Below are positions 19,045 to 54,587 of a DNA stretch of 64,000 nucleotides, piece after piece. Numbering within the stretch: the stretch's first letter is position 1; the number at the start of each line of letters is the position of its first letter. Origin of the DNA: a virus (Duplodnaviria; Heunggongvirae; Uroviricota; Caudoviricetes); the IMG/VR virus record IMGVR_UViG_3300029841_000117, positions 26,681-90,680 of that record. One strand, given 5' to 3'. A model generated the notes under the pieces. That model made no database searches. It was not told the DNA's origin and saw only the letters and a program-made list of their open reading frames with translations. The position numbers and the translations under genes are program-made.

Positions 19045-19250
19045 CTCATTCTCTTCGAAACTTCGAACTTATCCTCAAGTTCTTTCGGTGTCCGTGCTTT
19101 TCCAAGCTTCTTAAACTCTCCGTCAACAAGCTCATACAGGAAATAAAACTCACGGCTCTCTTTACTGGTAAGAATAAAGCAGAGCTCATGCTCGGCATTA
19201 TAATATCCAACCCAGACTCTTTCACCTTTGGGGTATTTGGGTTCAGCCAA
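19032..19250 (-). CDS. Hypothetical small protein
   Basis: ORF overlapping its neighbours by a few nt (translational coupling). Confidence 0.3.
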   Translation of the reverse strand: MAEPKYPKGERVWVGYYNAEHELCFILTSKESREFYFLYELVDGEFKKLGKARTPKELEDKFEVSKRMRCAQ

Positions 19251-27337: not shown

Positions 27338-27886
27338 CTATAGATTTAGAGATTCCAAAAGCTCTCGTTGCGGCGAGAACTCTTTATACAATTCGACCTC
27401 CTTGGTCAGCCGAGCCAAGATTGCTTCTTCCTTGACCGCGTACCTGCCCAAGTAAACTTTCTTATGGTTATAAGTAATGCTGGCAACCCACTTCTTACGT
27501 TGTTTGTCGAAGTAGACGCCAGCGACACCAGACGTATTGCACGAATACAGGCTGCGGTTTCTGTCGTTCTCAGAACGCTCGCAACACCGCAAGTTTTTCT
27601 TCCTGTTATCCGCTTTGTTTTTGTTGATGTGGTCAACGCATTGACCGGGCTTTGCGTGCATCACAAGTCGATGGAACCGGACAAAGCGTCGAACGCCATT
27701 ATAAAAGTAGCTGCTGACAAGATAACCGTCCTTGTCACAGTACCAACTGTCGCGCCCCTTGATAAGGGGGAGGTCTTCCAAATCAAAAAGGAATTCGGTC
27801 GTCTTGATTCGCAGGATACCGTATGTATCGAGAAGTTCAATCCGCATTATGTTCTGTCCAATCCGGCTTGAAGGCGTGTAAAACAT
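27338..27886 (-). CDS. HNH homing endonuclease with AP2 DNA-binding domain
   Basis: HNH_3-like block CVDHINKNKADNRKKNLR and AP2-like block SGVAGVYFDKQRKKWVASITYNHKKVYLGRY. Confidence 0.6.
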   Translation of the reverse strand: MFYTPSSRIGQNIMRIELLDTYGILRIKTTEFLFDLEDLPLIKGRDSWYCDKDGYLVSSYFYNGVRRFVRFHRLVMHAKPGQCVDHINKNKADNRKKNLRCCERSENDRNRSLYSCNTSGVAGVYFDKQRKKWVASITYNHKKVYLGRYAVKEEAILARLTKEVELYKEFSPQRELLESLNL

Positions 27887-31219: not shown

Positions 31220-31633
31220 TCACATTTCTGCTCTGACCCGCATAAGGATTTTACCAAGGCGATTTTCTCCAACGCCATCACAGACGCCCCAGATGCGGTC
31301 GCCCCAAGTGTTGCCTTCAATGAGTTCGGCATCCTTGGTCGCAACAAGCTTGTCTGCCAAATCAGGATTCTGTGAGAACTTTGCCTTGCAAATCTCATAC
31401 ATAACGGTATCTTTGACCGCCTCCCAGTCACCACGGAGCTTAACCCTACGCCCAAGCCTCTTTGCCTCTGACGGATTCAGACGGCAAAACTCAGTCATAC
31501 GTTCTGGGCATTTAGCCGCTTGAAACGCCGCCTCGTTATTCTCAAAACACATTCCGTTGTAGGTAACTGGTGCCGAGTAGAAGTTACTCAGAAAATAATA
31601 CTCACCTCTAAACTCGCTGATACTTACTCCCAT
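31220..31633 (-). CDS. NADAR-domain protein (YbiA/DUF1768 family; NAD and ADP-ribose associated)
   Basis: FRGEYYFLSNFY ... ENNEAAFQAAK ... EGNTWGDRIWG matches the NADAR core. Confidence 0.6.
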   Translation of the reverse strand: MGVSISEFRGEYYFLSNFYSAPVTYNGMCFENNEAAFQAAKCPERMTEFCRLNPSEAKRLGRRVKLRGDWEAVKDTVMYEICKAKFSQNPDLADKLVATKDAELIEGNTWGDRIWGVCDGVGENRLGKILMRVRAEM

Positions 31634-34721: not shown

Positions 34722-35489
34722 ATGCGACATTTGGCAACAATCCGTGAGATTGCATCTCTTCGCCCGATTGCAGGAGCTGACCGCATTGAAGTTGCGCAGG
34801 TCGATGGTTGGGAATGTGTGGTTCAGAAAGGCGAGTTCCATACAGGAGAGCATATCGTTTACATTGAGGTCGATTCTATCGTCCCAGAGCGCCCAGAGTT
34901 CGAGTTCTTGAGAGACAGAAAGTTCAGAGTTCGCACCATTAAGCTGCGTGGTCAGGTCAGTCAGGGTTTGGTTCTCCCGCTGTCCATTCTGCCGAATGGC
35001 GCTCCCGCCGATTTGGGTGCCGATGTGACCGATGTTTTGGGCATCAAGAAATATGACCCTGAAGCACAGCAGGAGGCGCAGCTCTTAACAAAGCAACCTC
35101 AGAAACCACAAAGTGCAATCGCTCATTTCTTGATGCGGTTTAAGTGGTATCGTAAGTTGTTTATGAAACCCAAACGCAAGGGTGGATTTCCTGATTGGAT
35201 TGTCAAGACGGATGAAACCCGCATTCAAAACCTTACGACGCTCTTTGAGATGGAGCGTAACAAGGGAACGAAGTTCTCTGTCACAGAGAAAGTTGATGGG
35301 CAGTCAGCGACGTATTACCTGCGCAAAATTTCCAAGCGCAAGTATGAGTTTGGTGTTTGCAGCCGTAATATCTATCTCGGAACGCCGGATAACAGTTCTT
35401 ACTGGACGATTGCTAAGAAGTACAATATCGAAAACGTACTGCGGCAGCTTATCGGTGATTATGAAACCATCGTTTTTAGCTTCTGCTGA
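34722..35489 (+). pseudogene. Truncated Rnl-type ATP-dependent RNA ligase (N-terminal OB module + motifs I and Ia only)
   Basis: Strong RBS AAAGGAGGG then ATG. MRHLATIREIASLRPIAGADRIEVAQVDGWECVV matches the N-terminal module of DraRnl/Rnl5-type ligases, followed by motif I TEKVDGQSATYY and motif Ia FGVCSRN. A stop follows immediately, so motifs III-V are absent and no downstream frame continues the gene. Confidence 0.5.
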
Positions 35490-35983: not shown

Positions 35984-36199
35984 TTAGAAATCAAAAAATT
36001 CTTGGTAAGCCCATACGCCGACAAAGATACCAGCGGGGATGCACCACAAAAGCAGAAAGGCTGGGTTATGCAGCTTGATGCTCCAAACAATTGGCATAAT
36101 CATCGTAAGAATGATTAGCGCAATCGAGACGATGGAGACAGCAATGCAAATTAGAACTTTAACCCAATCTTTTGCATTGTCCCACCATTTTTCCATCAC
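35984..36199 (-). CDS. Small membrane protein
   Basis: Two hydrophobic helices. Confidence 0.35.
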   Translation of the reverse strand: MMEKWWDNAKDWVKVLICIAVSIVSIALIILTMIMPIVWSIKLHNPAFLLLWCIPAGIFVGVWAYQEFFDF

Positions 36200-37086
36200 G
36201 GTTCGAGACTAATGATGGGCGTTGAGCCAGTCACCGTAGGCAGCTCGCCGTTCCACTGCTCATACTTGATTTTTTCAATCAACTCATTGGTAAGTGAAGC
36301 CGCAATCTTGCGGTTTGCGTCGGCTTCTGCCTCCGCAGCAATACGCAATGTCTCTGCTTTTGCTTCTGCTTCAATAACTGCTTTCTCTGCGTTAATCTGT
36401 GCGACCTCTCTGTCTTTCTCAGCCTGAACCTTGGCGGTTTGCTTTTCAATATTCGCCAACTCAAGCTCCTGCTGAGCAGTGACTTTCTTCTGGATAGCCG
36501 CAGCCGTTTCATCGTCAACTGAGATATCCGTAAAGTTTACAGTGTCAATAATGATGCCATACTGGTCGAACTTCTCACGCAAATAGGTATCCAACTCGGC
36601 ATTGATTTCAGTACGCTTGTCGCCAAAGATGTCGGTGACAGGGTAGTTTGCGGAAACTTCCTGCGTCCACGCCACAACCTTGGGCTTAATAAACGAATCC
36701 TTGATTGCCTCGCCAGATTTTCCTTTGAACATTGCAAAGGTTTCGGAGACTCGTGCCTCATCAAAACGATATGAGAACTCAATATTCACTCGGACAGTCT
36801 TACCATCAGAGGTAGGGATGTTGAAACTCTCATCCTTGGGTGAGTCGCCCTTATCCTCAGCCGTCAGATATGACTGCTCAATACCGATAGAATACTTGGT
36901 CACCTTTTTGGTCGGAGCAACCAGATGCCAGCCCTGTTCCAAGACCTCGCCATCAACGCCGCCGTTCATGTTATACACGACGCCGACGTAACCTGCGGGA
37001 ATCTTCTCCAGACACACAACGCAGCAAACCAAGCCGATAATCAGCACAAGTGCCAGCAAGATTGCGCCAAGTTTACCCTTCTTCAT
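36196..37086 (-). CDS. SPFH/band-7 (prohibitin/HflC-like) membrane protein
   Basis: N-terminal TM helix, SPFH-like core, and a long C-terminal coiled coil rich in A/E/K. Confidence 0.6.
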   Translation of the reverse strand: MKKGKLGAILLALVLIIGLVCCVVCLEKIPAGYVGVVYNMNGGVDGEVLEQGWHLVAPTKKVTKYSIGIEQSYLTAEDKGDSPKDESFNIPTSDGKTVRVNIEFSYRFDEARVSETFAMFKGKSGEAIKDSFIKPKVVAWTQEVSANYPVTDIFGDKRTEINAELDTYLREKFDQYGIIIDTVNFTDISVDDETAAAIQKKVTAQQELELANIEKQTAKVQAEKDREVAQINAEKAVIEAEAKAETLRIAAEAEADANRKIAASLTNELIEKIKYEQWNGELPTVTGSTPIISLEP

Positions 37087-37258
37087 TCTTTTACTTCCTT
37101 TTCTTCGTCAGTTTTTTTCTCCGTTTCCTCGGAGATTTCTTTCTTCGCATCATTGTACAATCGCATTCCAACTCCGCCGACGCCCTTAAAGGCGAAACTC
37201 AAACAGAACCAGATAAGCACAAGCACAATGACTACGATGAGCCAGAACACGATGTTCA
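37086..37258 (-). CDS. Small membrane protein (57 aa, below the ORF-track size cutoff)
   Basis: MNIVFWLIVVIVLVLIWFCLSFAFKG... read from the minus strand between two annotated genes. Confidence 0.25.
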
Positions 37259-37654
37259 TGTTGTTGCCTCCTGCTCTAAGACTCTTGGTATGTATGTGCG
37301 GGTTTCCATACGCTCTTCGACCTTTCTGGTCTTACCCAGCGCTTCACGCACAAGGTTCAAAAGGTTTTTGCCTTTGTCGCTTTCAAGAAACTGAACGAGC
37401 GGCTCAAGAATTTCTACCGTATCCTTGCACTCGCGCCGTGCTTGACGACACTTTGCAAGCTGTGTAGCAACTTTGGCTCGCTCTTTGTAATCAAGACCGT
37501 CAAGCTCCAGTTTGTGAAGGTAGTCCTGCGTGAGCCTATCCATGCGGTTCACCTCATCATAGTTCCACGCATAGTCCCTTTGCGCATTCTCCATCAGCTT
37601 ACAGAAGCTACTGATAGATTCTGAAAACTGTGGTGCCGCCTTTACTTTACCCAC
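37256..37654 (-). CDS. Hypothetical protein
   Basis: ORF in the array. Confidence 0.35.
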   Translation of the reverse strand: MGKVKAAPQFSESISSFCKLMENAQRDYAWNYDEVNRMDRLTQDYLHKLELDGLDYKERAKVATQLAKCRQARRECKDTVEILEPLVQFLESDKGKNLLNLVREALGKTRKVEERMETRTYIPRVLEQEATT

Positions 37655-38952: not shown

Positions 38953-39699
38953 TTACGGCTGTGAGCCGTAGGCTGGCATCGGATTGAGCTTGTGCAGGTT
39001 CTGCGTATGCTTCTTTGCAATTACTTTGTCGATGTCTTCATCCCCACTACTACCGTGCATGATGTAGTTGTCGAGCTGCATATAGGTAAAGCCCAGATTG
39101 TCTTCGTCTGTCTTACCGCAAAGACCGTCCGATGGAGTCTTGTCCACCAGCTCACGAGGAATGGGGAGTTCGTAGCCAATCTGACGAACCTCATGCACCA
39201 TGATATTTGCGAGTGGGCTGAAGTCACCAGCGCTGTCACCGAATTTTGTGGAGTATCCAACATAATCTTCAGAGCGATTGCAGGTGTTTGCCACCCGACC
39301 TCCGCGAGCCAAAGACTGCGCGACCATATAGAGCGTCGCCATACGCAGCCTTGGAGGGAGATTGACCGCTGCCTGATTGCTTACTCCAGATGGCATTGCT
39401 CTGCCGACTACATCAACCATCTTGCTGTATGCGCCGCCAATGTCAACTGTAATACTTGCAATGCCAAGCGTATCGACCAGCAGCTTGGAGTCTGCGATAT
39501 CTTTCTGCCGACCATTCGGCATCAGCACACCGATAACCCGCTCTGCGCCAAGGGCTTCAACACAAAGTGCTGCGACCACGCTGCTATCTTTGCCACCGGA
39601 AATGCCGATAACAGCACAGCAGTCGTTGCCGTTTGCAGCGAAATATTCTCGAATCCACTGCACGATTTCATCTTTTGTTCTTTTCGGATTTGCCAGCAT
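38953..39699 (-). CDS. nadE: NH3-dependent NAD+ synthetase
   Basis: PP-loop GISGGKDSSVVAALC, NLPPRLRMATLY, and TKFGDSAGDFSPL...DEDNLGFTYMQLDNYI, co-linear with E. coli NadE TKYGDGGTDINPL...DEVALGVTYDNIDDYL. Confidence 0.8.
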   Translation of the reverse strand: MLANPKRTKDEIVQWIREYFAANGNDCCAVIGISGGKDSSVVAALCVEALGAERVIGVLMPNGRQKDIADSKLLVDTLGIASITVDIGGAYSKMVDVVGRAMPSGVSNQAAVNLPPRLRMATLYMVAQSLARGGRVANTCNRSEDYVGYSTKFGDSAGDFSPLANIMVHEVRQIGYELPIPRELVDKTPSDGLCGKTDEDNLGFTYMQLDNYIMHGSSGDEDIDKVIAKKHTQNLHKLNPMPAYGSQP

Positions 39700-39700
39700 A

Positions 39701-40126
39701 CTATACCTCTTTTCTCCACAACTCTACTGTGTACTTATCGGACAGTTCCTTTTGGATAAGACCCAAAATCACATTCCAGTCCCCACCGCCAAGACCGCAT
39801 CCAATCTTAAACGGCATGGCAATTGTTTCTCCTGCAGGTATGGTCAACTTAATCCGTTTTAAGCAGCTCTGAAATGCGGTGTAATCTGTGTACAGTTTCC
39901 CATCATATCCGTAGTTGCTCTGCGCAAACATATTGACAACGACTTTACCGTCGTTAGCTTGAACGAACTGCGTCTGACCGAACGCATTGCGCTCTTCGTT
40001 GCAGAAGCCAACATAGGCGTTATAGACTTCTGGATACTTGGCTCGAACCTGTTTCGCCACACCACTACCCATTCTCGCCTGACAGTTAACCTGATGGCAA
40101 ATATATTTGGCGTGGGTCTGAAACAA
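39701..40126 (-). CDS. Macro-domain protein (ADP-ribose binding/hydrolase)
   Basis: ICHQVNCQARMGSGVAKQV and the GCGLGGGDW glycine-rich loop are typical of macro domains. Confidence 0.6.
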   Translation of the reverse strand: MFQTHAKYICHQVNCQARMGSGVAKQVRAKYPEVYNAYVGFCNEERNAFGQTQFVQANDGKVVVNMFAQSNYGYDGKLYTDYTAFQSCLKRIKLTIPAGETIAMPFKIGCGLGGGDWNVILGLIQKELSDKYTVELWRKEV

Positions 40127-40152
40127 ATCTCCATCAATAATTTGTACCGGTA

Positions 40153-41643
40153 TCAGAACGTTCCTCCGTGAAGATTCTTACGAACCTCATCCAGCGTGAA
40201 CTGCTTTTCAAACTTTCCATCTCTAAACACGGTGCGCAGCTCATTGCTGTCCTGTGCTTCAGCCCAAGTAAGACCATCAACGTAATCGTAGCCGTCATTA
40301 GTTTTGACTACGCGGCAGCAACCACGCTGAGACTTCTTAAAATGTCCTGTGTCTGTCTTGGGGTTCTTGAAAATCATAATCGGTTTGCCGTCGGCATCTT
40401 CTGCATATGTCGCTTTAACTGCAATGCCGAATGTATCCCTTGTGTACGGATTGTACTGTTTGCTTCCATCGCTCTCGATTGTCTCTAAGCACTCCATTGA
40501 GAATGAACCGACACCGAGCGAAACATTATTGATTGCAAAGCCGTTTTTCTCCAAAAGAGAATAGATTTGCTCACAGCGCTGCGGAGTAATGCTGTCCCCG
40601 TAAATTGCCTTGACGTGCGGATTCAGCACCTTGTACCCCTTGCTATTTACTGTGCCGCCAAAGATGTCCCACAGACGATATACGGTCTCAGTGATTACAC
40701 TAACAGGGTCACCGCTGTCGCCGCGAATTGAGATGAAGCCATCGTGATTTAGGATGTCATCTTTGAGCTGAGGGAGGACTTTTTCAACAAGATTCCAATA
40801 GTCATAGCTGTCGCTAACCATTGAGAAGCTTTGATGCGGATACACCTCACAAAGAAGTCGTCGAATCTGTGTCACCTCATCACCGTCAACAGCAAAGTTG
40901 GAACACATTACGCTGTGTTCTGTTGAGAGCGCACCATATGCGACAGGTTCCTTGCTACAATCACAGTTGTAATTATGCTCAAGCCACAAAATCGCAGGAA
41001 CTGTCGCCGTATTCAAGAAGCTCAGGCAGAAAGCCGCTGCGCTCTTTGTTGCACTTTCAACGCTCTCTTGCCCGCGCATAGAAAAATCGCCAAGGAGCCT
41101 CGCACGAACCACACTGTCATCGCAAGTGCGTTCTGCATACTCATTGACGATTTTACGATATCTGTACCCAACCTCAGCGGAGACTTGCGTATGCCACATT
41201 GTGCAAGAGAGCATCGTCTCGATGGTGTTGACCAGCCATACGAAGTTAGGGTGTGTATTTGAGATTTCAATTTGTGGGACTTTGATATTGGTTCTCGTTC
41301 CTTCGGGAACAGCACGAATCTGTAACGGAAGATAGCCGAGGTCATGCAATTCACGAAGCCGTTTCTCTCCAACGCCTTTCGTTCTAATTGTTGCCCCAAG
41401 AACTCTGGTGTACTCCTTGAGTACACTATCAAACGGGACATTAAAGAAGTGGTCGTTGAATGCCTCAATGAGATATTCCTGAATGAATGCCTGAAGCCCA
41501 AACAGTGTAACCTTATCGGTATCACCGAGGCGACTCATGCGTGGCGTGTAGTAGGAGACCATTTTGGTCAAGCCATTCGGATACTGTTCAGCGTGACACG
41601 TCTTATAGAAGTCCAGACACAGGAGCGGATTATATGTAATCAT
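40153..41643 (-). CDS. NAMPT-family phosphoribosyltransferase (NadV-like nicotinamide PRTase or Namat-like enzyme)
   Basis: Co-linear with human NAMPT: DFYKTCHAEQYP (DSYKVTHYKQYP), IRAVPEG, GDFSMRG (HDFGYRG), VSDSYD, IRGDSGDP (IRPDSGNP), KGYKVL...IYGD, TLDEVRKN (SFDEIRKN). Confidence 0.8.
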   Translation of the reverse strand: MITYNPLLCLDFYKTCHAEQYPNGLTKMVSYYTPRMSRLGDTDKVTLFGLQAFIQEYLIEAFNDHFFNVPFDSVLKEYTRVLGATIRTKGVGEKRLRELHDLGYLPLQIRAVPEGTRTNIKVPQIEISNTHPNFVWLVNTIETMLSCTMWHTQVSAEVGYRYRKIVNEYAERTCDDSVVRARLLGDFSMRGQESVESATKSAAAFCLSFLNTATVPAILWLEHNYNCDCSKEPVAYGALSTEHSVMCSNFAVDGDEVTQIRRLLCEVYPHQSFSMVSDSYDYWNLVEKVLPQLKDDILNHDGFISIRGDSGDPVSVITETVYRLWDIFGGTVNSKGYKVLNPHVKAIYGDSITPQRCEQIYSLLEKNGFAINNVSLGVGSFSMECLETIESDGSKQYNPYTRDTFGIAVKATYAEDADGKPIMIFKNPKTDTGHFKKSQRGCCRVVKTNDGYDYVDGLTWAEAQDSNELRTVFRDGKFEKQFTLDEVRKNLHGGTF

Positions 41644-41864
41644 TCAGTTTTTCCTCTTTTCTTTAGCTTTTCACCATATTTTTCAAAAAACACAGCAAAC
41701 GCAAACGGTGCTGCAACAATCCAGAAAACGCCTACCATAATATACCCGTCTTCGAACCCATTATATTTGTTATATGGTTCTACGATAACGTACAAGCGGC
41801 AAAGTGCGAATGTTACAATCGCACCAATGCAGAGGTACAGGAGCACCAAAAGGACTATCATCAT
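41640..41864 (-). CDS. Small membrane protein
   Basis: Two TM helices. Coupled between rtcB and the NAMPT-like gene. Confidence 0.35.
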   Translation of the reverse strand: MMIVLLVLLYLCIGAIVTFALCRLYVIVEPYNKYNGFEDGYIMVGVFWIVAAPFAFAVFFEKYGEKLKKRGKTE

Positions 41865-43066
41865 TCCTCTTCACCCGCCTTAAAGTTATAAATCGGCTTG
41901 ATGATGGCATCAATGGTCACTGTTGGTTCGACATTGTTTACGATATCATCCATACCTTTGTATGCCATCGGGCATTCATCGAGCGTGCTTCTTCCAACAG
42001 ATGTAGTGTAGATACCCTCCATCTGCTTCTTGAACTCAGAAACTGTGAATGTCTCTTTCGCCGCGCTGCGGCTCATCAAACGCCCAGCTCCATGCGGGGC
42101 AGAGAAGTTCCAGTCTTCATTTCCTTTGCCGGTACACAGCAAACTACCGTCTCTCATGTTGATAGGAATCAGCAGCCGCTCACCAGCTTGTGCAGAGACC
42201 GAGCCCTTGCGAAGAATCATATTCTCTACATCGATGTAGTTGTGAATAGTCGTAAACTGCTCTTCGACATGGAAGCCCATACCCTTAACAATGGTGTCCA
42301 TCATTGCTTGGCGGTTAAGTTCAGCAAAACGTTGAGCAATTTTCATGTCATGGATATACTGCTCAAACAATTCTCCCTCAACGTATGCAAGCTGCTTTGG
42401 AACTCCCGGCTTCTTTGCCTTCATGCCTTTAAGAACAGCTTGGATTTCTTTTTGTCTTCCAGCCGCTTTTAACTCGTTGACGACCTCCTCGATTTCTTCC
42501 TTGGAATACGAGGTTAACGCCTTGAACGCAGCTTCCTGATAGAAGTTAGCAATCTCCAGACCAAGGTGTCTACTGCCGGAATGCACCACAATATAGATGT
42601 GCCCATCATCATCTTTGTTGGCTTCGATGAAATGATTTCCTCCACCAAGCGTACCGATGCTTTTATATGCGCGGTCTACATTGACCATCTTTGCACAGCA
42701 CAGTTCCGACAGGTCGATGCTACTTGCATATCTATGAGCTTCTGTGCGAATCTCAAAACCGGACGGAACTCCTGCACGAATAACTTTGTCCAGCTTCTGC
42801 GGTTCAATATGCGTTTCTTTGATACGGATAGTTTCCATGCCGCATCCAATGTCAACGCCGACAAGGTTCGGGCAAATCTTATCCTTGATGGTCATCGTGG
42901 TTCCGATTGTACAACCAGCCCCAGCATGAATGTCTGGCATCATACGGACTTTGCTTCCCTCGATGTACGGTTGATTCAAAAGATTGATAACCTGAGAGAT
43001 AGACTCATTATCGACCACGTCGGTAAACACCTTTGCAGTGCCAAACTTACCCTGTAACTCAAGCAT
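41861..43066 (-). CDS. rtcB: RtcB-family RNA ligase (3'-phosphate/5'-OH)
   Basis: MPDIHAGAGCTIG, VGVDIGCGM, HNYID and NFSAPHGAGR signatures. Confidence 0.8.
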   Translation of the reverse strand: MLELQGKFGTAKVFTDVVDNESISQVINLLNQPYIEGSKVRMMPDIHAGAGCTIGTTMTIKDKICPNLVGVDIGCGMETIRIKETHIEPQKLDKVIRAGVPSGFEIRTEAHRYASSIDLSELCCAKMVNVDRAYKSIGTLGGGNHFIEANKDDDGHIYIVVHSGSRHLGLEIANFYQEAAFKALTSYSKEEIEEVVNELKAAGRQKEIQAVLKGMKAKKPGVPKQLAYVEGELFEQYIHDMKIAQRFAELNRQAMMDTIVKGMGFHVEEQFTTIHNYIDVENMILRKGSVSAQAGERLLIPINMRDGSLLCTGKGNEDWNFSAPHGAGRLMSRSAAKETFTVSEFKKQMEGIYTTSVGRSTLDECPMAYKGMDDIVNNVEPTVTIDAIIKPIYNFKAGEEE

Positions 43067-43085
43067 TTGCCCGCCTCCTTTAAGA

Positions 43086-43898
43086 TTAAATGAGCGAAAT
43101 CATCTCGCTATTTCCGCGATAGATACTATCTGTGGTAAACACACGACTGATTAAGCCGTCTGTGAGAACCGTTCCACTGTGAATTGTGTTTTCACAATGG
43201 GTCACATACAAATACACCTCATTCGCGCCAGCCTCTTTTAGTGCCTTAGCTGTAAAAGTGAATGTGCCTCCGCGAGAACAAATATCATCGACAATCAGCA
43301 CATTTCTATCGGTAACCTTTTCTGGGCTCGTCAGTTCCAGCCGTTCAATTTTCCCGGTGCGCCAGTCTCTGTGCTTGATGCAGAACACATACTCTCTGCC
43401 AGCTTGCGATGAATATCGTTTTGCTGCTCCTTCATCAGGATAGCACAGCAACACATTTTTGTCATTCAACTTGTCCAAGACTCTTCGAATATTTGACTGC
43501 GCATCTATCACACAGACCCTATCAAACAGTGCTGTTGAAACATTCGAGTGCGGGTCGCTGACAAGCACCCGGTCAAAGCCTAATGCGTTGATGAACTCTG
43601 CAAACCATTTCAACGTAAAGACTTCATCTGCATTTTTTACTCTATCCATTCTGGCGTTTGGAATATACGGCAGACTCAAACGGATGATAGGTCTTTGGTT
43701 ATTCTCTCGAATATGGTTTGTCAAGTACCACAAGAGAATACACTCTTCATCGTTGTCGTATTTCCATGTGATACTGAAAATGGGCGATTCCATTGGTTGA
43801 GCAAACATCCGTGGGGGAAGATGCGGAGAGAATCTGAAAGAGGTTGTTCCATCAGGGAACTTTGTAAACTCGACCTGCTTGTCGTTGACAAGAATCAT
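43086..43898 (-). CDS. Ribose-phosphate pyrophosphokinase family enzyme (Prs-like; PRPP synthetase or ADPR-PP synthetase-type homologue)
   Basis: PYIPNARMDR (PYFGYARQDR), DRVLVSDPH, and the PRPP-binding loop VLIVDDICSRGGT. Confidence 0.7.
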   Translation of the reverse strand: MILVNDKQVEFTKFPDGTTSFRFSPHLPPRMFAQPMESPIFSITWKYDNDEECILLWYLTNHIRENNQRPIIRLSLPYIPNARMDRVKNADEVFTLKWFAEFINALGFDRVLVSDPHSNVSTALFDRVCVIDAQSNIRRVLDKLNDKNVLLCYPDEGAAKRYSSQAGREYVFCIKHRDWRTGKIERLELTSPEKVTDRNVLIVDDICSRGGTFTFTAKALKEAGANEVYLYVTHCENTIHSGTVLTDGLISRVFTTDSIYRGNSEMISLI

Positions 43899-44455
43899 GC
43901 CGTGACCCCCTCGTTCTCGATGTTAATCTGGCACATTTTCATTGCCGACAGTGCAGTCTTGTGACTCTCTGGTGTCACGCCAGCGCAGCAGGAAGCATCG
44001 ACCGTAATCTTAACTTCCGGCATAAACGCCTTGAGCAGCAAGGCATTTGAGATAACACAGATATCGGTACAAAGACCAACAAGGACAATTTCTTCTATGC
44101 CATCACCAAACGCAACTTTTGGATATAGGCGACCAGCAAGTGCTAATGAACCAAACGTTTTCTTCTCGAAACCATTCAACTTGTCATCCGCTGGATGCTT
44201 GCTCTGAATTGCTGCTTTGACTGAGCTATGAATCTGCCAGCCATTACTTGCAGATATACAGTGTTTTACCGGCAACAGTCTTCCTTCTTGCGTTTCGAGG
44301 TAATCATCAGAATGGGTGTCTTGTGTCCACAAAACTTCCCCATCAAACTCTTCAATTTTCTTGACGACCTTCGGCACAATAGCCTGTGCCTCCGGTGTCC
44401 CGAGCGCACCATCAATAAAGTCGTTCTGCATATCAACGACAACAAGAACCTTCAT
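43895..44455 (-). CDS. Isochorismatase-family hydrolase, nicotinamidase (PncA)-like
   Basis: VVVDMQNDF N-terminus and catalytic Cys block VGLCTDICV. Confidence 0.55.
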   Translation of the reverse strand: MKVLVVVDMQNDFIDGALGTPEAQAIVPKVVKKIEEFDGEVLWTQDTHSDDYLETQEGRLLPVKHCISASNGWQIHSSVKAAIQSKHPADDKLNGFEKKTFGSLALAGRLYPKVAFGDGIEEIVLVGLCTDICVISNALLLKAFMPEVKITVDASCCAGVTPESHKTALSAMKMCQINIENEGVTA

Positions 44456-44470
44456 TCTTCACCCTCCATC

Positions 44471-44992
44471 TCACAGCGACGTTTGTTTGCTAATAAAGTT
44501 TATCGCTTTGCCTGTTTTCTTGTTTACACCATGTCCAACAACATGGACGAGGTAATCTTCCCAAGTTTCTCCCGCTTTCCAATACTCGGAGTCCTTTTCG
44601 TATGTACCGGTTTCTCTTACAACTTCGATTTGAATAGTCCCTTTGAAGTCTGGAATTATCGTAGTCGTCCACGGTCTCTCTAAGTGATAATTGAAGTTTG
44701 GGTTATAGGCAAGAACTTCATGCAGCAGAAATACAGATACAAGACCGGCATCTGCACAGAACCGCCCCAACGGCTTCTTTGTGTCAGAATCAAAAACTGT
44801 GCATCCCCAGTCTCCATAGATGGTGTCATGGGTCAAATAATTTTTAATCCCAAGTCGCTCCATATATTCACCGTACTCACAATAATGCCAGTCGTTCTTA
44901 GTTATCCCGTTTTCATTGCGAATAATGTAGCAGGGGTCTGTAATGATAATGTCACCATCAAACTCTTTTTCCGGGGTACTCTGATATCTCAT
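44471..44992 (-). CDS. Hypothetical protein
   Basis: ORF in the array. Confidence 0.4.
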   Translation of the reverse strand: MRYQSTPEKEFDGDIIITDPCYIIRNENGITKNDWHYCEYGEYMERLGIKNYLTHDTIYGDWGCTVFDSDTKKPLGRFCADAGLVSVFLLHEVLAYNPNFNYHLERPWTTTIIPDFKGTIQIEVVRETGTYEKDSEYWKAGETWEDYLVHVVGHGVNKKTGKAINFISKQTSL

Positions 44993-45428: not shown

Positions 45429-45983
45429 TTAGGTTGCAATACGTCTCCCATCCATGCTCAGGAGCTGTGCGAACGCCTCGTCTTCTTCTTGCTGCTTTTC
45501 CACTTCATCATTCTGGATAGCCACAAACACTACACTGCACATACCGATGAGGTCATCGATGGAGAAATCCTCTTCCTCAATGGTTTCATCTTCGTCGGGT
45601 TCCTCTTCCAGAGAATCGAGGAAGTCGTCATCTGCATCGGCGTACTCTTCATCTTCATCTTCCTCGTCGTCCCATGCGCCGTAGTCATCGCCCCATTCGA
45701 GGACATCCTCTTTGTAGTCTTCGAAGTCATCGTCATCGAGACCATCATAATCAAAGGCGCTGTTACGACGGTAGTAATAGTACCCGCTGGGGAGGTTGCC
45801 AAGGAAGTCTCGGATGTCCCTCCAGCCGTAGTCGGCGATAGCATCGCGGATATCTTCTTCGACGCTGTCATCGTAATCATCATCGTCATAGATGTCCTCA
45901 CAGATATCGCAGTCAAAGTCGTTGCAAAAGTCTTTCAGTTCACACCACTCAGTGATATTGTCAATAAATTCATTCCTTGTCAT
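45429..45983 (-). CDS. Highly acidic Asp/Glu-rich protein (candidate DNA mimic)
   Basis: About 40% D+E with long DDDDYDD / EDEDEEYADADDD runs. Aromatic residues interspersed. Confidence 0.45.
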   Translation of the reverse strand: MTRNEFIDNITEWCELKDFCNDFDCDICEDIYDDDDYDDSVEEDIRDAIADYGWRDIRDFLGNLPSGYYYYRRNSAFDYDGLDDDDFEDYKEDVLEWGDDYGAWDDEEDEDEEYADADDDFLDSLEEEPDEDETIEEEDFSIDDLIGMCSVVFVAIQNDEVEKQQEEDEAFAQLLSMDGRRIAT

Positions 45984-45986: not shown

Positions 45987-46469
45987 TTAATCCTCCATTT
46001 CCACTATTTCAGTTGAGACCCTAACGAGCTTGGACAATGCTTTTTCTGTCAGGAACGCATATTGTACGCCAAGCTGCGTACTGGTTAACTCTTTTCGCAT
46101 TGCTGTAGCCGCCACGTCAATCGACACATTGCTATTTCTCAGCTTTGTAAATTTACTTTTCAAATTACTTCCTCCGCCAGCCATATATCCGATTACCAAA
46201 TCGACATTTGGAGCGGTGCCGAGCCTTGAAGAAACCACGAACCGAAGCCAATCCTCAGACCTTTCATCAAACTCCAGAACAGAGAGTCCATCCAAGTCTG
46301 TGAGCAGATATGTTTGGACATATCCCACCCGAGAGTTTTTGACTGCCATCGGCAAGGCATCGAAATAATTTGTGGCAAGATAAAAGCCGCATCCGAAATC
46401 TCGGTGCGGCTTACACTTGTTCAGGGTTGGTACATCGAAATCTGCCGGAGTACCGTGATACAGATACAT
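45987..46469 (-). CDS. Hypothetical protein (MYLYHGT...GFYLAT N-terminus)
   Basis: ORF in the array. Family uncertain. Confidence 0.4.
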   Translation of the reverse strand: MYLYHGTPADFDVPTLNKCKPHRDFGCGFYLATNYFDALPMAVKNSRVGYVQTYLLTDLDGLSVLEFDERSEDWLRFVVSSRLGTAPNVDLVIGYMAGGGSNLKSKFTKLRNSNVSIDVAATAMRKELTSTQLGVQYAFLTEKALSKLVRVSTEIVEMED

Positions 46470-48543: not shown

Positions 48544-49076
48544 CTGCAGTCCATATGTATATTCTGTTCTGGTCTCTTCGGTTATCTCCTGTAGCGACGG
48601 GATTTAGATGAGCTGAAAGCGAGTTCAAATCCCAAGCGGCGATGATGAAATCATTGGGAGACAATGGGTTCGACGGTCGCTCATCGGATGGAGATGACAA
48701 GACATCGAGAATAGTTTTAATGAGCTGTACAGCGAGCTTAGGCGCCTTCGCAGCAGGCTGCGGGCGGGGAATTGTGCTGTCCAGCAAAGTGATACTTCAG
48801 CCTTTGGCGTGAAGCACATTCCTTACGAAATGTTATTCACTGCAAATGATAATTTGATTATCCTGTAATCTACATGGAGGTAGCTCCCTACGAGGAGGAG
48901 CTCCGGCACCCAGTGACTGGCGTGCGACATCTTTTGGTCGTCTCGTTGAATCCATTGTGGCACAATGGATTCAAGTGATTCGGGCTGCTCACCGTGTGGT
49001 TCGCAGCCTCGAAGGATGACTTGAGTCTGCAGGTGAATGCGCCTCCGGGGAGGTTTTCCTCCCTATCAAGTTGTTA

Positions 49077-49096
49077 CTTATGCCTTTGGCGATAAG
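49077..49096. repeat. Dispersed hairpin family, copy 2: CTTAT-GCCTTTGGCG-ATAAG, inside a ~60-nt repeat also present upstream of the RT
   Basis: Lies 50 nt downstream of the RT stop. The flanking TTGTTACTT and CCTCCGGGG..CCTCCC blocks are shared with the copy at 50560-50625. Confidence 0.55.
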
Positions 49097-49145
49097 CATT
49101 GCTTTCGCAATTATGCATTACAGGATTGCGGGTTATTTATAGACG

Positions 49146-50282
49146 TTACCGCAGGTCGTCCTTCATCATGCGGATTACATCCACATTCATTTTCTTGTTG
49201 ATGTAAGCTACAATTGCGTCGATGGTCTCTTTTTCGACCATACGATAATAGCTATGCAGACCATACATTACCTGTACATCATTCCGCTCCCAAGCGACAC
49301 CATTGTTCTTATCTGTGATGTAATTGTACAGCATTGACTGGAACTGCTTTTTCTTTTTATGACCGACCGTAATCTCGTTGTCCTTATTCAGCATAACGCC
49401 AAGATTCCAGTTGCGTCCCGCTGATGAACCATACCGAGTCTTGCTTGCATTGATTGTGAACGGGGCACCAAAGCTGTTCAATGTACTTACTACCAGCTCT
49501 TCAACAGAACGAACATCAAAATCATACTTGGATGAAATGATGAAGTCATCCGCATATCTGGTATAAATGAAGCTCTGTTTTTCAAAATTACGGAGCGTAT
49601 TCGACAGTTTGAAATCAACCGGAATCATCATTACGTTTGTGATAAGCGGTGAAATTGGGGTACCTTGCGGTAGCCCACCATTTAAGAACGCTAACGACAT
49701 AGCTGCCCGCAATGCTGCCTCGCCCTGTGGCTCTTTAACAATCTCACTAAAAGGAAAAACCATCGAGAACATTGAGATGGCATAATCCAATGTTGTGCTG
49801 CCAAAAAAGTCGTGCAGGTCAAGCTTTGCGAACCATTTGCTGCTGTTCTTCTGGTGACGCTTAACCGCATCGACTGTACTCCGCTTCTTTACATAAGCAA
49901 ACGCGGCAGTATGATAGAGTGCATGGAAATCATCCTCGAAAATCGTTTTGAGTCTTCTCAGGGCGTCCATCAGCTCTGCCTTTGGCGCATCGATTCTACG
50001 AAGACCACCAGATTTCTTTGGGATGTAAAAGGTCTCATACAACTCGCTCCGTTCCTTTGCACGAAGCTCTGCTGTATCGTTATTAAATCGCACGAGTTTT
50101 CCGATTAAAGCTTCAACACCAATCTTGCTGGAAAAATGTTCACTGACATTTTCGACCTCGTATGTTCTTGTGTTTGCAATATTGGCATTGACAACCGGAG
50201 GTGTCTGATAGTTTTGAAACAGGTACTCTTCCAGTGTCATCTGATGATAAATCGGTGACTGCCTAACAGTGATATAGACCAT
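49146..50282 (-). CDS. Reverse transcriptase, retron-type (RT domain only; no maturase or endonuclease domains)
   Basis: IPKKSGGLRRIDAP, LDLHDFFGS, GLPQGTPISPLITNV, IYTRYADDFIISS and INASKT align with retron Ec86 RT (IDLEDFF, LLPQGAPSSPKLANL, IYTRYADDLTLS, INSKKT). RBS AAGGAGGGG upstream. Confidence 0.8.
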   Translation of the reverse strand: MVYITVRQSPIYHQMTLEEYLFQNYQTPPVVNANIANTRTYEVENVSEHFSSKIGVEALIGKLVRFNNDTAELRAKERSELYETFYIPKKSGGLRRIDAPKAELMDALRRLKTIFEDDFHALYHTAAFAYVKKRSTVDAVKRHQKNSSKWFAKLDLHDFFGSTTLDYAISMFSMVFPFSEIVKEPQGEAALRAAMSLAFLNGGLPQGTPISPLITNVMMIPVDFKLSNTLRNFEKQSFIYTRYADDFIISSKYDFDVRSVEELVVSTLNSFGAPFTINASKTRYGSSAGRNWNLGVMLNKDNEITVGHKKKKQFQSMLYNYITDKNNGVAWERNDVQVMYGLHSYYRMVEKETIDAIVAYINKKMNVDVIRMMKDDLR

Positions 50283-50603
50283 TTCTTCCCCTCCTTGTCC
50301 AATAACTAACTGTAACCTACATATGTCTGCTGCTTCCCAGAATTCCTAAGTCTGAAGACTACGTCGTCCTTGTGGGAGGTGGTGCGAGCTCTTGCAAGAT
50401 GCGAGATTTTTTTTCTTTGATTTCTTGCGACTGACAGCATGAGTTTGATGTTAGTACATTTCGCCCATGTATCGAAGAATTGGCGAAAAGTGCTTGACAT
50501 TTGGTTGGTTTTGTGGCGCGATGCTGCCGACCCGTGGCAGCCGGTTTGCTTTCAGGGTTCCGCCGCGTCATCCTCCGGGGGTCATCCTCCCGACAATTTG
50601 TTA

Positions 50604-50623
50604 CTTTAGCCTTTGGCGTAAAG
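50604..50623. repeat. Dispersed hairpin family, copy 3: CTTTA-GCCTTTGGCG-TAAAG
   Basis: In the 378-nt non-coding region upstream of the RT and 40 nt downstream of the stop of the 50661..51467 gene. The stem differs from copy 2 by compensatory AT/TA swaps. Confidence 0.55.
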
Positions 50624-50660
50624 CTCTCTTACGAGAAAATCCGTTACAGTCTGTGGCGCA

Positions 50661-51498: not shown

Positions 51499-52176
51499 TT
51501 AAAACGCATCCAACAGCGGCTGGAATGCGTCACAAATAATCAGCTTATTCAGCCCCTTGCCCCTGATGTACTTGACGAAGTTGCTCACGCCCAGAGCACA
51601 AATCACTCTGACCGTAGTCACAACGCCAAGCGTGATGCCACAAGCTGAGACCGGAGTTTCTTCCGCCGCCTCATCGTGTGTAAAATTCATGGAGTTGAGG
51701 AGGTCTTTCTTCATCTTGTAGTCAGACCAATCAGCAGCATAGTGCTGACCAGCCTCCAGCAGAGTTCTGAAATCAAACATCGCCTTTACATACGGATTGT
51801 CGAAGTGTTTCTCAACAATCTTTTTTCTCAGCTCGATGTTATCGACGCACAAGAACACATAGCCGGATAACTGCTGCCCGTCCCACCCATCCTTGTAAAG
51901 CTTCAGGTCATCCTTAACATCAGGATTGATGTCGAAAAGAATATCCGCCAATGCCTCGACCTTAGAGCGCCCAATGTCCTGCTGACGGAAAATCTGATTT
52001 GCCAGATTGTGCGGACTTACTGTGTCCATATCCCACAGTGCGATGTTCGTGAGTCCTAAGCGAACCAGCAGCTCCGCAACCGTCGCGCCGACAGAACCAC
52101 ACCCGACGATGTGGATTCTACAATCAACCTTCTCGGGCTGGAAATATTCATAGCTCTTTGACAGGTCAATAGCCAT
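51499..52176 (-). CDS. E1-like (ThiF/MoeB family) adenylyltransferase, minimal 225-aa form
   Basis: Rossmann motif IHIVGCGSVGATVAELLVRLGL and WDMDTVSPHNLANQ (ThiF D.D.VE.SNLNRQ). Confidence 0.6.
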   Translation of the reverse strand: MAIDLSKSYEYFQPEKVDCRIHIVGCGSVGATVAELLVRLGLTNIALWDMDTVSPHNLANQIFRQQDIGRSKVEALADILFDINPDVKDDLKLYKDGWDGQQLSGYVFLCVDNIELRKKIVEKHFDNPYVKAMFDFRTLLEAGQHYAADWSDYKMKKDLLNSMNFTHDEAAEETPVSACGITLGVVTTVRVICALGVSNFVKYIRGKGLNKLIICDAFQPLLDAF

Positions 52177-52177: not shown

Positions 52178-53134
52178 TTACTTACCTCCTAAGTATGCAT
52201 AAGGGTCGTAGTCATCTTCGTCTTCCCAGCCATTCATTGATTCTTGGCAGGCATTCTGTCCATGCCAACCAGCTCCAATTCTGGTTCTGGGTTTCTCTCC
52301 CTCGTTCTTTTTACCAGATGACTTATCCTTGTTTTCTTCTTTCTTACTGTCCTTCTTGTCGTCGGACTTACCCGCAAGCGGATTGTACGGAGCACCTGCC
52401 GGAGCCCCCTTGTATCCCTGATTGTAGTAACCGCCGTATCCGCTCTGACCGCCATATGCATAGGACTTTGACTTCACCATATCCTTCGCGTTTTTGATAA
52501 ACTCATCAAGTCCTTCATTCTGACCGATAATCTTGACCGTGATATCTTTATCCTCAAACATCACGTTCTTCTTGAGGTCATAGATTTTATTTGTGCTTGC
52601 AAATGACTTGTTCCAAATCATAAAGATGTAGAAGTCATTATCGCCAAGCATCCCGAGGATTTCCTCTTGATGATTGAGGTCAACAGAGGATGGAGACGTA
52701 CCCATATTTACATGGGAATGTCCCTGCATATAGATGTGGTTGAAACGCTCATCTTCGATGTTTTCCTGAATCCACAGAGCATATTTCTCGGTGTCCATCT
52801 CAACCGTTGCGCCGGTTACCTCCTGCGGATAGACAACGATGTCATCGATGACATACTCGTCAAGCGATTCATCTTCAGTTCGACGTGCGACACCATGCCA
52901 TGCGACCTCTTTATCGAACTCTTTGATAAGCATAGTCATCTTTGCCCACGCCTCTGCGCTGAAGTAAACTACTGCCTTTCTGTCACCACATGAGAACGCT
53001 TTGGTAAAAGAAAGCTTTCCATCCGAGAGCTTTGTAAGTGACAAAGCCTTCTCAAAATCTTGACGGCACTCATCAATGAGTTCCTGCGTCAACTTAATTG
53101 GTCTGCTCATTTTGCGCCTCCTCCGTCTGCTCAT
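52178..53134 (-). CDS. JAB/MPN (JAMM) metalloprotease with Gly/Tyr/Lys-rich low-complexity tail
   Basis: JAMM motif E...HIYMQGHSHVNMGTSPSSVD (HxHx7Sx2D). Ends 2 nt before the E1-like gene. Confidence 0.6.
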   Translation of the reverse strand: MSRRRRRKMSRPIKLTQELIDECRQDFEKALSLTKLSDGKLSFTKAFSCGDRKAVVYFSAEAWAKMTMLIKEFDKEVAWHGVARRTEDESLDEYVIDDIVVYPQEVTGATVEMDTEKYALWIQENIEDERFNHIYMQGHSHVNMGTSPSSVDLNHQEEILGMLGDNDFYIFMIWNKSFASTNKIYDLKKNVMFEDKDITVKIIGQNEGLDEFIKNAKDMVKSKSYAYGGQSGYGGYYNQGYKGAPAGAPYNPLAGKSDDKKDSKKEENKDKSSGKKNEGEKPRTRIGAGWHGQNACQESMNGWEDEDDYDPYAYLGGK

Positions 53135-54587
53135 TCATTGCCTCCTGCTCATCAAGCCATCTAATTGCTTCGTTCGGCTTTACAACGCGACCATCTGGCA
53201 ACTCAATACAACGACTGACCGTGTTATTTGACCACATGGTTCTCATAAACTCGCCCATAACTGCACTGTCGCCGAAGTTCAGACTCTTACAGGACGCAAT
53301 ACACTGCTCAAGTGCACCGATATAATTTCGTTTTCTCAGCAGTTCATTGATAGTCCTGCTGTAATTGCCCATGCAATGATAACGGTCAATATGCGTATTA
53401 GGCATATAACCATCAAATGTGTAATCAGAAAAATCACCAGTCTGCGCAGAAACACTACCATTCAGGTCGAATCTATATGCTGCGCAAAAGCGGATTCTAA
53501 GCCGAGGATTTTCACTTACGAAAATCTCCTGCATCAGCTTCTGCATTTTCTCTGAAGCTGCCGCATTGTGACCGTTGCCACCATCCGGTCGATACACATA
53601 ACTGCTTCTATTGTTGATTGCTCGCTCAGCCATATCTCTGTCAAAGTATTCAAGGTAGTCTTTAACCGAGAAATACATATCCGTATTGCTAACATGAGAC
53701 AGGACAAGTCTGTTGTTGCAGAGGAAATAATCCATGATTTCAGAATCTCCACCGCCCTCTGCAATTCTTTGCTCAAGCCCCAACAATCTGATGCACTTGT
53801 CATTGCGGCGCGACAGATACGCGCCGATAGAATCATTGAGTCGCTGAATCTCCATGTCAATAGATTGGATTTCATTGCGAACAGTATCGCATTCGATGCG
53901 CTCATATCTGGTTTCAAAATCACCCAGCAACTGACGAATCCGCGCTGTTCTGAAATCATATCCCTCGGCAAGCTTTGCAATGTACTTCTCATAGTTTGCC
54001 GAATTTGTTTCTCGCAAGGATTGCATCAATGCAAGCTCATCTTCTGTCAAACCATCATCCTGATTCAGGTACCACGGCATGAATGCAAGAATAGATACCT
54101 GAAGGTAATGCATTTTCTTAACATCAAGATTGTCAACGAAGACAATCACCGACTTCTTGTCAGGGTTGATATAACAATCAACATTGAATGACTTCCGATA
54201 AAACGCTTTGACCTTATCAAGACGGTGATACTCTGGGTAGATAGAAGTAAACTTGTCCTCCACAATCTGCATACAAGCCAGATTGCTATTTTGGTCAGCA
54301 TTGAAGCTATGGACTATGAGCGCACCGCTGGCATTCATTTGATAACTGCTACAGATAGCACTAACCGCACGTTCTGCTGGAACGTTACGGATAGTGTTCC
54401 CATCATAATTGGTCGAACCGAAAGTCAGGTAGACACTTTCGTCCTCTTTGATTCGAGGTGCAACCAGTGCACGAAGCGTTGAAAGGAACGAACAGTCATT
54501 GCCAAAATAGCTTCCGGTAATGTTCTGGAAAAAGCTATTAGCCGCCTCTGACGTAAACGGTGTCGATGTAATGCTTGTCTTGAACAC
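53094..54587 (-). CDS. Hypothetical 497-aa protein, first gene of the JAB-E1 operon
   Basis: Overlaps the JAB gene start by about 40 nt. No recognisable domain. Confidence 0.4.
   Translation of the reverse strand: MFKTSITSTPFTSEAANSFFQNITGSYFGNDCSFLSTLRALVAPRIKEDESVYLTFGSTNYDGNTIRNVPAERAVSAICSSYQMNASGALIVHSFNADQNSNLACMQIVEDKFTSIYPEYHRLDKVKAFYRKSFNVDCYINPDKKSVIVFVDNLDVKKMHYLQVSILAFMPWYLNQDDGLTEDELALMQSLRETNSANYEKYIAKLAEGYDFRTARIRQLLGDFETRYERIECDTVRNEIQSIDMEIQRLNDSIGAYLSRRNDKCIRLLGLEQRIAEGGGDSEIMDYFLCNNRLVLSHVSNTDMYFSVKDYLEYFDRDMAERAINNRSSYVYRPDGGNGHNAAASEKMQKLMQEIFVSENPRLRIRFCAAYRFDLNGSVSAQTGDFSDYTFDGYMPNTHIDRYHCMGNYSRTINELLRKRNYIGALEQCIASCKSLNFGDSAVMGEFMRTMWSNNTVSRCIELPDGRVVKPNEAIRWLDEQEAMNEQTEEAQNEQTN

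Follow-up and report, generated by a model that had tools for sequence, protein, structure and literature searches.

A gut phage gene cluster that may rebuild NAD+ through a deamidated form of NARP1

The window analysed here is a stretch of 64,000 nucleotides (64 kb) from a virus of the class Caudoviricetes (IMG/VR record IMGVR_UViG_3300029841_000117, positions 26,681 to 90,680 of that record). At positions 38953 to 44455 it carries a cluster of genes related to nicotinamide adenine dinucleotide (NAD+) metabolism. The cluster encodes a PncA-like nicotinamidase, a homologue of the phosphoribosyl pyrophosphate (PRPP) synthetase Prs, the RNA ligase RtcB, a homologue of NAMPT, a macro-domain protein and the NAD+ synthetase NadE. 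The original prediction, made from the letters of the window, read the cluster as a relative of the phage pathway NARP1 to which NadE and the PncA-like protein add a deamidated route, and saw no NMNAT. The locus raises the question of how such a set of enzymes could make NAD+. The answer that we favour, with a confidence a little above even, is that its core is a deamidated NARP1, which would rebuild NAD+ by way of nicotinate and nicotinate adenine dinucleotide (NaAD). This core consists of the PncA-like protein, the ADP-ribose pyrophosphate (ADPR-PP) synthetase Adps, a variant of the transferase Namat and NadE, here joined by the macro-domain protein.

In NARP1, Adps, a homologue of Prs, makes ADPR-PP, and Namat, a homologue of NAMPT, joins ADPR-PP to nicotinamide (Osterman et al. 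2024, bioRxiv 10.1101/2024.02.11.579819). About 15% of NARP1 phages add the Poa1p-like protein Adpp, which converts the ADP-ribose-1''-phosphate (ADPR-1''-phosphate) of RES-type defences to ADP-ribose (ADPR), an extension known as NARP1-AP (Osterman et al. 2026, bioRxiv 10.64898/2026.01.28.702374). NARP2 consists of Nampt and Nmnat (Vibrio phage KVP40), and NARP3 of PnuC and NadR (PMC13464706). A survey of NAD+ genes in gut jumbo phages recorded pncB/nadD/nadE and NAMPT through KEGG annotation only. The three characterised phage routes of NAD+ reconstitution all run on the amidated side; the module described here predicts a fourth logic and a new reaction.

The transferase and its nicotinamide pocket

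The NAMPT-like gene (40153 to 41643, minus strand) encodes a protein of 496 amino acids which matches PF04095, PF18127, NF006629 (462.7 bits) and phrog_448 (E=4.7e-158). The protein scores 405.6 bits against the solved Namat of SPbetaL1 (9w5x), compared with 169 bits against the Nampt of Xanthomonas and about 145 bits against human NAMPT. The nicotinamide pocket of SPbetaL1 Namat consists of F189, R192, D215, A242, R306, D13' and Y15', and D215 forms a hydrogen bond with the amide (PMC12774641). A HMMER alignment to the structure, and MAFFT alignments, show that in the window enzyme Ala replaces D215 and Ser replaces A242 (pocket type A213/S240), the other five residues of this seven-residue pocket being unchanged. 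The enzyme retains F189, R192, R306, D308, D13, Y15, H245, R40, F392 and the TRD motif. In human NAMPT the equivalent of D215 is D219, and as summarised in reviews of Khan et al. 2006 this residue defines substrate specificity, with D219S listed as switching substrate affinity.

To collect relatives of this enzyme, 1.84 billion cluster representatives were searched exhaustively, and the best 150 at 50% identity were aligned with eight references. Positions 215 and 242 covary without exception in this set, references included. D215 is found in 95 sequences, together with Ala (94) or Gly (1) at position 242; Ala, Ser or Val at position 215 is found in 57 sequences, always with S242. The variant with Ala or Ser at position 215 (the A/S type) makes up 52 of the 150 closest representatives. 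In a neighbour-joining tree from which columns 215 and 242 had been removed, its members group in a single clade of 52 tips that contains no other type. The cluster to which the window enzyme itself belongs has 3374 member sequences in public assemblies. On the evidence of these alignments and this tree, the NAMPT-like enzyme belongs to a separate monophyletic subfamily near Namat and is neither a canonical Namat nor NadV. Residues 215 and 242 provide a simple sequence rule that separates the variant from NARP1, and this rule would correct tools that at present assign such loci to NARP1, to NadV or to 'nicotinate phosphoribosyltransferase'. A further combination, Glu215 with Ala242, is seen in the Namat homologues of loci L156, L164, L179, L183, L195 and L196, which are linked to Adps and not to NadE or PncA.

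The adenine 'selectivity clamp' of SPbetaL1 Namat consists of R40, F392, Y396, T398 and D400, with the motif GSXphiXphiXphiTRD, and the double mutant R40A/F392G loses only the reaction with ADPR-PP and retains PRPP chemistry (PMC12774641). In the A/S clade R40 is present in 48 of 53 sequences and Phe or Tyr at position 392 in 54 of 55, together with T398, R399 and D400. The bacterial loci described below have R40 in 80 of 80 cases and F392 in 78 of 80. Since the clamp residues are kept and their mutation spares PRPP chemistry, their conservation points to selection for an adenine-bearing donor. The motif itself (the SCH signature, G-S-X-phi-X-phi-X-phi-T-R-D) is broken in the window enzyme, which reads GSFSM[ECLETIESDGSK]QYN[PY]TRD; GSF and TRD are kept and the interruption is of 14 residues. 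Insertions of about 9–26 amino acids are found in this motif in most members of the A/S clade, and the short form in a minority. Among the canonical Namat homologues, P0170, P0189 and P0198 (778–822 amino acids) have an intein-like insertion of about 300 amino acids in their clamp motif (GS[FY]...TYQ.NTRD), which begins with Cys and finishes with His-Asn.

Gene partners of the variant transferase

The window protein and two family alignments served as queries to gather about 200 viral loci, with 10-kb flanks, from IMG/VR. The six-frame open reading frames (ORFs) of these loci were searched with jackhmmer, and the Namat homologues were clustered at 90% identity. The genes found within 10 kb depend on the pocket type. 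NadE is present in all 22 clusters of the A/S type, Adps in 21, a PncA-like gene in 20 and a macro-domain gene in 14. The 89 clusters with Asp or Glu at position 215 include 83 with Adps and 17 with a macro-domain gene, but none with NadE and none with a PncA-like gene. For NadE, the difference between A/S and canonical Namat has p = 1e-23 by Fisher's exact test. The two A/S clusters without a PncA-like gene lie on contigs which are cut just upstream; where the upstream flank is intact, PncA is present in 20 of 20. The addition of NadE and a PncA-like enzyme, to which the original prediction drew attention, is thus invariant across the whole subfamily and is not a peculiarity of this phage.

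The common gene order is PncA, Adps, Namat, an optional macro-domain gene and NadE, and it persists down to 44% Namat identity on contigs of more than 400 kb. Adps and Namat are adjacent in most relatives; in the window they are within 10 genes of each other and separated by two, RtcB and an ORF of 74 amino acids. The same module is found in the complete gut phage Phass-1 (136 kb), where its genes are labelled as nicotinamidase, ribose-phosphate pyrophosphokinase, nicotinamide phosphoribosyltransferase and two hypothetical proteins. Among 50,697 GenBank phage records, NadE is found in 43, a PncA-like protein in 13 and a NAMPT-like protein in 2043. Bacillus phage G was considered as a cultured example of the module and rejected: it has isochorismatase/PncA, a PncB-type enzyme, NadD and NadE, and no Adps. 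The absence of NMNAT from the cluster was borne out more widely, as no NadD/NMNAT homologue, (H/T)xGH motif or PncB-type enzyme was found in the window, the roughly 200 viral flanks, the 80 bacterial flanks or the Phass-1 genome.

The Prs-like gene (43086 to 43898, minus strand) encodes 270 amino acids and matches phrog_619 (E=2.9e-78). The protein shares 37% identity over its full length with the characterised Adps of SPbetaL1 (148 bits), compared with 30% identity to E. coli Prs over the C-terminal part only (69 bits). It falls far under the cutoffs of all Prs equivalog models and just passes the broad model TIGR01251 (114.7 bits, cutoff 113). The residues that bind ADPR and ATP are known from the structure of Adps from phage ICP1 (PMC13586617). 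The equivalents of F18, R87, H121, D161, K185, D212, D213, C215 and F221 are retained in the window protein, including the catalytic Lys (SPbetaL1 K162, ICP1 K185); in the same numbering E. coli Prs has Ile at 215 and Leu at 221. The C-terminal extension of Prs (its C-terminal helices) is missing. In the Adps tree, the proteins from these modules group as a monophyletic clade of their own within Adps, and their mean distance to E. coli Prs (0.858) is no shorter than that of canonical Adps (0.855). As judged from these comparisons, the protein belongs to the Adps clade of ADPR-PP synthetases and not to housekeeping Prs, and it is predicted to convert ADPR and ATP to ADPR-PP and AMP.

A phylogenetic placement of the Prs-like protein had been proposed as a check on the original prediction, and it comes out nested in Adps and outside housekeeping Prs. 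The kinship of the cluster with NARP1 is supported, as are the lack of an NMNAT and the presence of NadE and a PncA-like enzyme, which points to a deamidated route. The accompanying view, that Adps and Prs, or Namat and NadV, could not be distinguished by sequence, was too cautious: the Adps-clade grouping and the Namat and Nampt scores given above separate them.

The conserved module starts with the gene of the PncA-like protein (43895 to 44455, minus strand; 186 amino acids; PF00857, E=4e-25). Among proteins of solved structure, its best match is the pyrazinamidase/nicotinamidase of Pyrococcus horikoshii (1ilw, 55.4 bits). The Asp-Lys-Cys triad and the Asp-x-His...His signature of nicotinamidases are present: the triad D8/K98/C133 and the metal site D46/H48/H65 align with D10, K94 and C133 and with D52, H54 and H71 of the P. 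horikoshii enzyme, and these residues are invariant in 21 of 21 module-linked homologues. The score against the NCBIfam PncA equivalog is only 32 bits (cutoff 174), so this protein is a divergent member. The predicted reaction is the conversion of nicotinamide to nicotinate and ammonia.

The last module gene encodes NadE (38953 to 39699, minus strand; 248 amino acids; PF02540, E=5e-51), which scores 167.7 bits against TIGR00552 (cutoff 63.65). It has a single NAD_synthase domain, no glutaminase domain and an ATP-pyrophosphatase motif, SGGKDS; the motif is present in 22 of 22 module NadE proteins. By these features NadE is a standard ammonia-dependent enzyme, with the predicted reaction of NaAD, ammonia and ATP to NAD+.

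The macro-domain gene (39701 to 40126, minus strand; 141 amino acids) matches PF01661 (25.2 bits, cutoff 22) and phrog_335, 'phosphatase' (E=2.9e-37). Its product shares 30% identity (E=2e-15) with the characterised Adpp of Vibrio phage Gary, the sequence of which was taken from a supplementary table of the NARP1-AP paper (bioRxiv 10.64898/2026.01.28.702374), and its phage homologues carry the annotations Poa1p-like or phosphatase. Judged by homology the protein is a member of the Adpp/Poa1p family of ADPR-1''-phosphate phosphatases, and would convert ADPR-1''-phosphate to ADPR. A role as a DarG-like de-ADP-ribosylase was considered and rejected in favour of an Adpp/Poa1p-like one, the score being 50.8 bits against a cutoff of 250.

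Bacterial copies, the proposed pathway and its alternatives

The module is also found in bacteria. A scan of one genome per bacterial species yielded 80 sampled loci, mostly from Lachnospiraceae, Oscillospiraceae, Ruminococcus and other Clostridia, with isolates among them. The Namat homologue is of the A215/S242 type in 80 of 80, and the four-gene module is complete in 65 of 80. Of the 80 bacterial loci, 50 have a full-length homologue of NrtR no more than 300 nucleotides from the module; no viral locus has one. In Pseudoruminococcus massiliensis (locus L240, 8632 to 14324) the pncA-like, adps-like, variant namat and nadE genes have ordinary chromosomal neighbours; NadE is the long glutamine-dependent form, and the gene which adjoins the module is that of NrtR, in which a Nudix domain is joined to a winged helix.

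NrtR represses NAD genes and comes off DNA in response to ADP-ribose, and the classical clostridial NrtR operon is nrtR-pncA-pncB-nadD-nadE (PMC2330246). The new bacterial operon has the first and last genes of the classical one, with Adps and the variant Namat in place of PncB and NadD. Operons in which a chromosomal pair of Prs-like and NAMPT-like proteins is under an ADPR-responsive repressor of Nudix type have been described before, both as NrtR-regulated prs-nadV operons and as chromosomal NARP1 (PMC2330246; PMC12774641). The clostridial operons differ from these in having the A215/S242 enzyme between pncA and nadE, an arrangement not found in either of the two papers.

The pathway that we propose begins with defence NADases, which would cleave NAD+ to ADP-ribose and nicotinamide. 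RES-type enzymes would yield ADPR-1''-phosphate instead, from which the macro phosphatase would make ADPR. The PncA-like protein would convert nicotinamide to nicotinate, and Adps would convert ADPR to ADPR-PP. The variant Namat, which has lost the amide-binding Asp and gained a Ser, would then join nicotinate to ADPR-PP and so form NaAD directly, with release of pyrophosphate. NadE would finish the route by converting NaAD to NAD+, possibly with the ammonia freed by PncA. Adps and the variant Namat would in this way replace PncB and NadD of the Preiss-Handler route, and an NMNAT would be unnecessary.

The proposed pathway shares with NARP1 an enzyme of the Adps clade and a Namat-like homologue of NAMPT, borne by a phage in one co-directional array. 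It also shares the catalytic residues, the R40/F392 clamp and TRD of the transferase, and its predicted inputs are again ADPR and a pyridine base from NADase defences. It differs in the changes of D215 to Ala or Ser and of A242 to Ser, in the insertion in the SCH motif and in the constant company of a nicotinamidase and NadE. The product of the transferase is predicted to be NaAD and not NAD+, with two added enzymatic steps. A Poa1p-like macro gene in the operon, expected from homology to recover ADPR from the ADPR-1''-phosphate made by RES-type NAD+ phosphorylases, is held in common with NARP1-AP; in the window it lies between Namat and NadE, and such genes are found near a larger share of A/S clusters than of canonical ones, as counted above. 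The classical Preiss-Handler operon of Clostridia likewise begins with PncA and ends with NadE, is linked to NrtR in bacteria and runs through nicotinate and NaAD, but it includes the PncB and NadD that the module lacks, and in the module the ADP-ribosyl part would come from ADPR and not from PRPP and ATP. NARP2 and NARP3 are also phage-encoded systems of NAD+ restoration; in the 64-kb window, however, no Nmnat, NadR or PnuC was found, and the NAMPT-like enzyme falls on the side of Namat and not of Nampt.

Neither a nicotinate-type Namat nor a PncA-Adps-Namat-NadE module was found described in the searchable literature, the coverage of which is incomplete; the reports searched included those on NARP1, NARP1-AP, RyDEP, NARP3, the structures of Namat and Adps, the gut jumbo-phage survey and a 2022 survey of viral NAD+-ADPr. 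We regard it as an evenly balanced proposition that the formation of NaAD from nicotinate and ADPR-PP is a previously undescribed reaction, and that it forms part of a PncA/Adps/NadE bypass of PncB and NadD which is controlled by NrtR in many gut Clostridia and has been captured by their phages as a distinct route of NAD+ reconstitution, of nicotinate type. If true, the reconstruction of NAD+ and ADP-ribose recycling would change for a major part of the gut microbiota.

Several points weigh against a deamidated NARP1. NadD is essential and universal in bacteria, so that its lack in the module leaves room for a route through PRPP and nicotinate mononucleotide (NaMN) completed by the NadD of the host. 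The removal of nicotinamide could relieve product inhibition of host NADases, and the deamidated route costs one ATP more than NARP1. We infer the specificities for base and donor from two pocket residues and from gene linkage. The insertion of 14 amino acids in the SCH motif of the window enzyme might alter or abolish adenine recognition. A profile alignment of Namat with E. coli PncB (hhalign) covers the C-terminal third only, at a probability of 5%, and leaves position 215 unreadable. In the reviews of Khan et al. 2006, D219A of human NAMPT is listed as inactivating and not as switching. In Clostridia the module is a housekeeping recycling pathway, as seen from the chromosomal NrtR-linked copies, so an anti-defence role in the phage would follow only by analogy with NARP1.

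The strongest alternative, although we consider it unlikely, is a PRPP-based salvage of nicotinate. The Prs-like protein would be a dedicated PRPP synthetase and the variant transferase a nicotinate phosphoribosyltransferase that forms NaMN, which would pass through host NadD, present in essentially all hosts, to the NadE of the phage. The module would then amount to a Preiss-Handler pathway strengthened by the phage, with NadD as its one absent enzyme. The change of the pocket and the linkage to PncA and NadE fit the use of nicotinate equally well here, and the broken SCH motif would be in keeping with a donor that lacks adenine. The Namat of SPbetaL1 accepts PRPP in vitro when ADPR-PP is absent (PMC12774641), and prs-nadV operons were first interpreted in this manner (PMC2330246). 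Against this reading, the Prs-like protein falls within the Adps clade, is no nearer to E. coli Prs than canonical Adps is and keeps C215 and F221. The conservation of R40 and of Phe or Tyr at 392 is no weaker than in canonical Namat. A housekeeping Prs is already present in cells, and across about 100 independent lineages the module has never acquired NadD, which the classical operons include. These observations favour ADPR-PP as the donor.

A second alternative, which we judge improbable, divides the locus between two separate functions. An ordinary NARP1-AP with a nicotinamide-using Namat would operate beside PncA and NadE, which would boost the Preiss-Handler pathway of the host by way of host PncB and NadD. 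Each part has a known stand-alone activity, NARP1 and NARP1-AP are established experimentally, and NadE without Namat is found in cyanophages and pelagiphages. This division leaves unexplained why NadE and PncA are never found with the D215 enzyme and always with the A/S type, and why residues 215 and 242 change jointly. The D215A mutation lowers the NAD+ output of SPbetaL1 Namat 8-fold (PMC12774641). A nicotinamidase would moreover rob a nicotinamide-using Namat of its substrate.

A route in which the NadE homologue amidates NaMN to nicotinamide mononucleotide (NMN), as the NadE of Francisella reportedly does, with a phage- or host-encoded NMNAT completing NAD+, is very improbable: the window is about half of a genome of about 125 kb and an NMNAT may lie outside it, but the searches of the flanks and of the complete Phass-1 genome described above revealed none, and the window NadE is a standard NAD synthetase by its TIGR00552 score.

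Layout of the cluster and other features of the window

All of the ORFs named in the original prediction exist at the positions it gave, on the minus strand, and profile searches agree with its account of six co-directional genes. Its gene list omitted the hydrophobic ORF of 74 amino acids (41640 to 41864, minus strand), which lies between RtcB and the NAMPT-like gene and has no significant family match. Genes overlap by 4 nucleotides at the junctions of PncA with Adps, RtcB with the 74-amino-acid ORF and this ORF with Namat; the other junctions have gaps of 1–26 nucleotides. This close spacing is consistent with a single transcription unit. A scan of the locus for promoters and terminators gave counts that were not above those in shuffled sequence, so the limits of the operon are taken from gene spacing only.

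RtcB (41861 to 43066, minus strand; 401 amino acids; PF01139, E=2.3e-65; phrog_1075, E=2.9e-142) is indeed interleaved with the NAD genes, as had been noted, but its place there is not conserved: only 5 of the 22 A/S viral clusters have it in the module, and all 80 bacterial loci lack it there. The NADAR-domain gene which the original prediction reported at 31220 to 31633 is also present (minus strand; 137 amino acids; PF08719, E=7.5e-28), 7 kb from the module, and a NADAR gene occurs within 10 kb in 3 of the 22 A/S clusters. On this conservation both were rejected as functional members of the module. The idea of a de-ADP-ribosylation island is weakened by the rarity of NADAR and by the membership of the macro protein in the Poa1p/Adpp family of NARP1-AP. 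RtcB is a lineage-specific insertion which probably belongs with the tRNA-repair set of the phage. The 74-amino-acid ORF is confined to close relatives of the window, and we propose that the two were inserted together, later and outside the NAD chemistry.

Further genes of the tRNA-repair set encode a CCA-adding enzyme with an HD domain (19243 to 20589), an RlaP nucleotidyltransferase (20579 to 21601), a Thg1-like tRNA-His guanylyltransferase (24057 to 24881) and a PHA02142-type RNA ligase (34722 to 35489, plus strand), with RtcB as the last. Such a set suggests a counter to anticodon nucleases and offers a better explanation of RtcB than the NAD module. Immediately upstream of the module, between 46491 and 58291, are 13 minus-strand tRNA genes, for Pro, Thr (two), Gln, Gly, Trp, Ser (two), Leu (two), Lys and Ala (two).

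The window also encodes DNA polymerase III alpha, primase, DnaB helicase, ERF, ThyX and a dNMP kinase. Together with the tRNA and tRNA-repair genes, these indicate that the window belongs to a large phage. The same phage is found on IMG/VR contigs of 123–133 kb with 97–100% protein identity, and the relative closest to it in GenBank is a contig from human faeces that carries no annotation. A megablast search of the cluster against GenBank phages gave no match, and protein-level searches were therefore needed. The Oscillospiraceae isolates Dysosmobacter segnis (L211) and strain 50-58 (L212) have relatives of the module at 76–77% identity, on contigs of 368–388 kb. The window has a large serine recombinase (25394 to 26476), and the recombinase and the isolate-borne relatives hint at a temperate lifestyle and an Oscillospiraceae host. 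An HNH-AP2 homing-type endonuclease is encoded at 27338 to 27886.

Directly upstream of PncA is an ORF of 173 amino acids with no family match (44471 to 44992), which is kept only in close relatives and in MT835544. It is preceded by a DUF3990 protein and an Asp/Glu-rich protein of 184 amino acids, a possible DNA mimic (the acidic protein at 45429 to 45983 and the DUF3990 protein at 45987 to 46469). Three copies of a 45-nucleotide element (48772 to 48816, 49054 to 49098 and 50581 to 50625) with the conserved core TTACTT.AGCCTTTGGCG..AAGC flank a reverse transcriptase gene (49146 to 50282; PF00078, E=1.2e-19). The gene and its repeats may represent a diversity-generating retroelement, a retron-like unit or a repeated promoter. 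After a ThiF/E1-like protein (51499 to 52176) come two large ORFs (52178 to 53134 and 53094 to 54587), neither of which matched a family. Elsewhere in the window are a class-V aminotransferase/cysteine desulfurase (21606 to 22820; PF00266, E=3.3e-80) and an SPFH/Band-7 protein with a small membrane ORF on each side (35984 to 37259).

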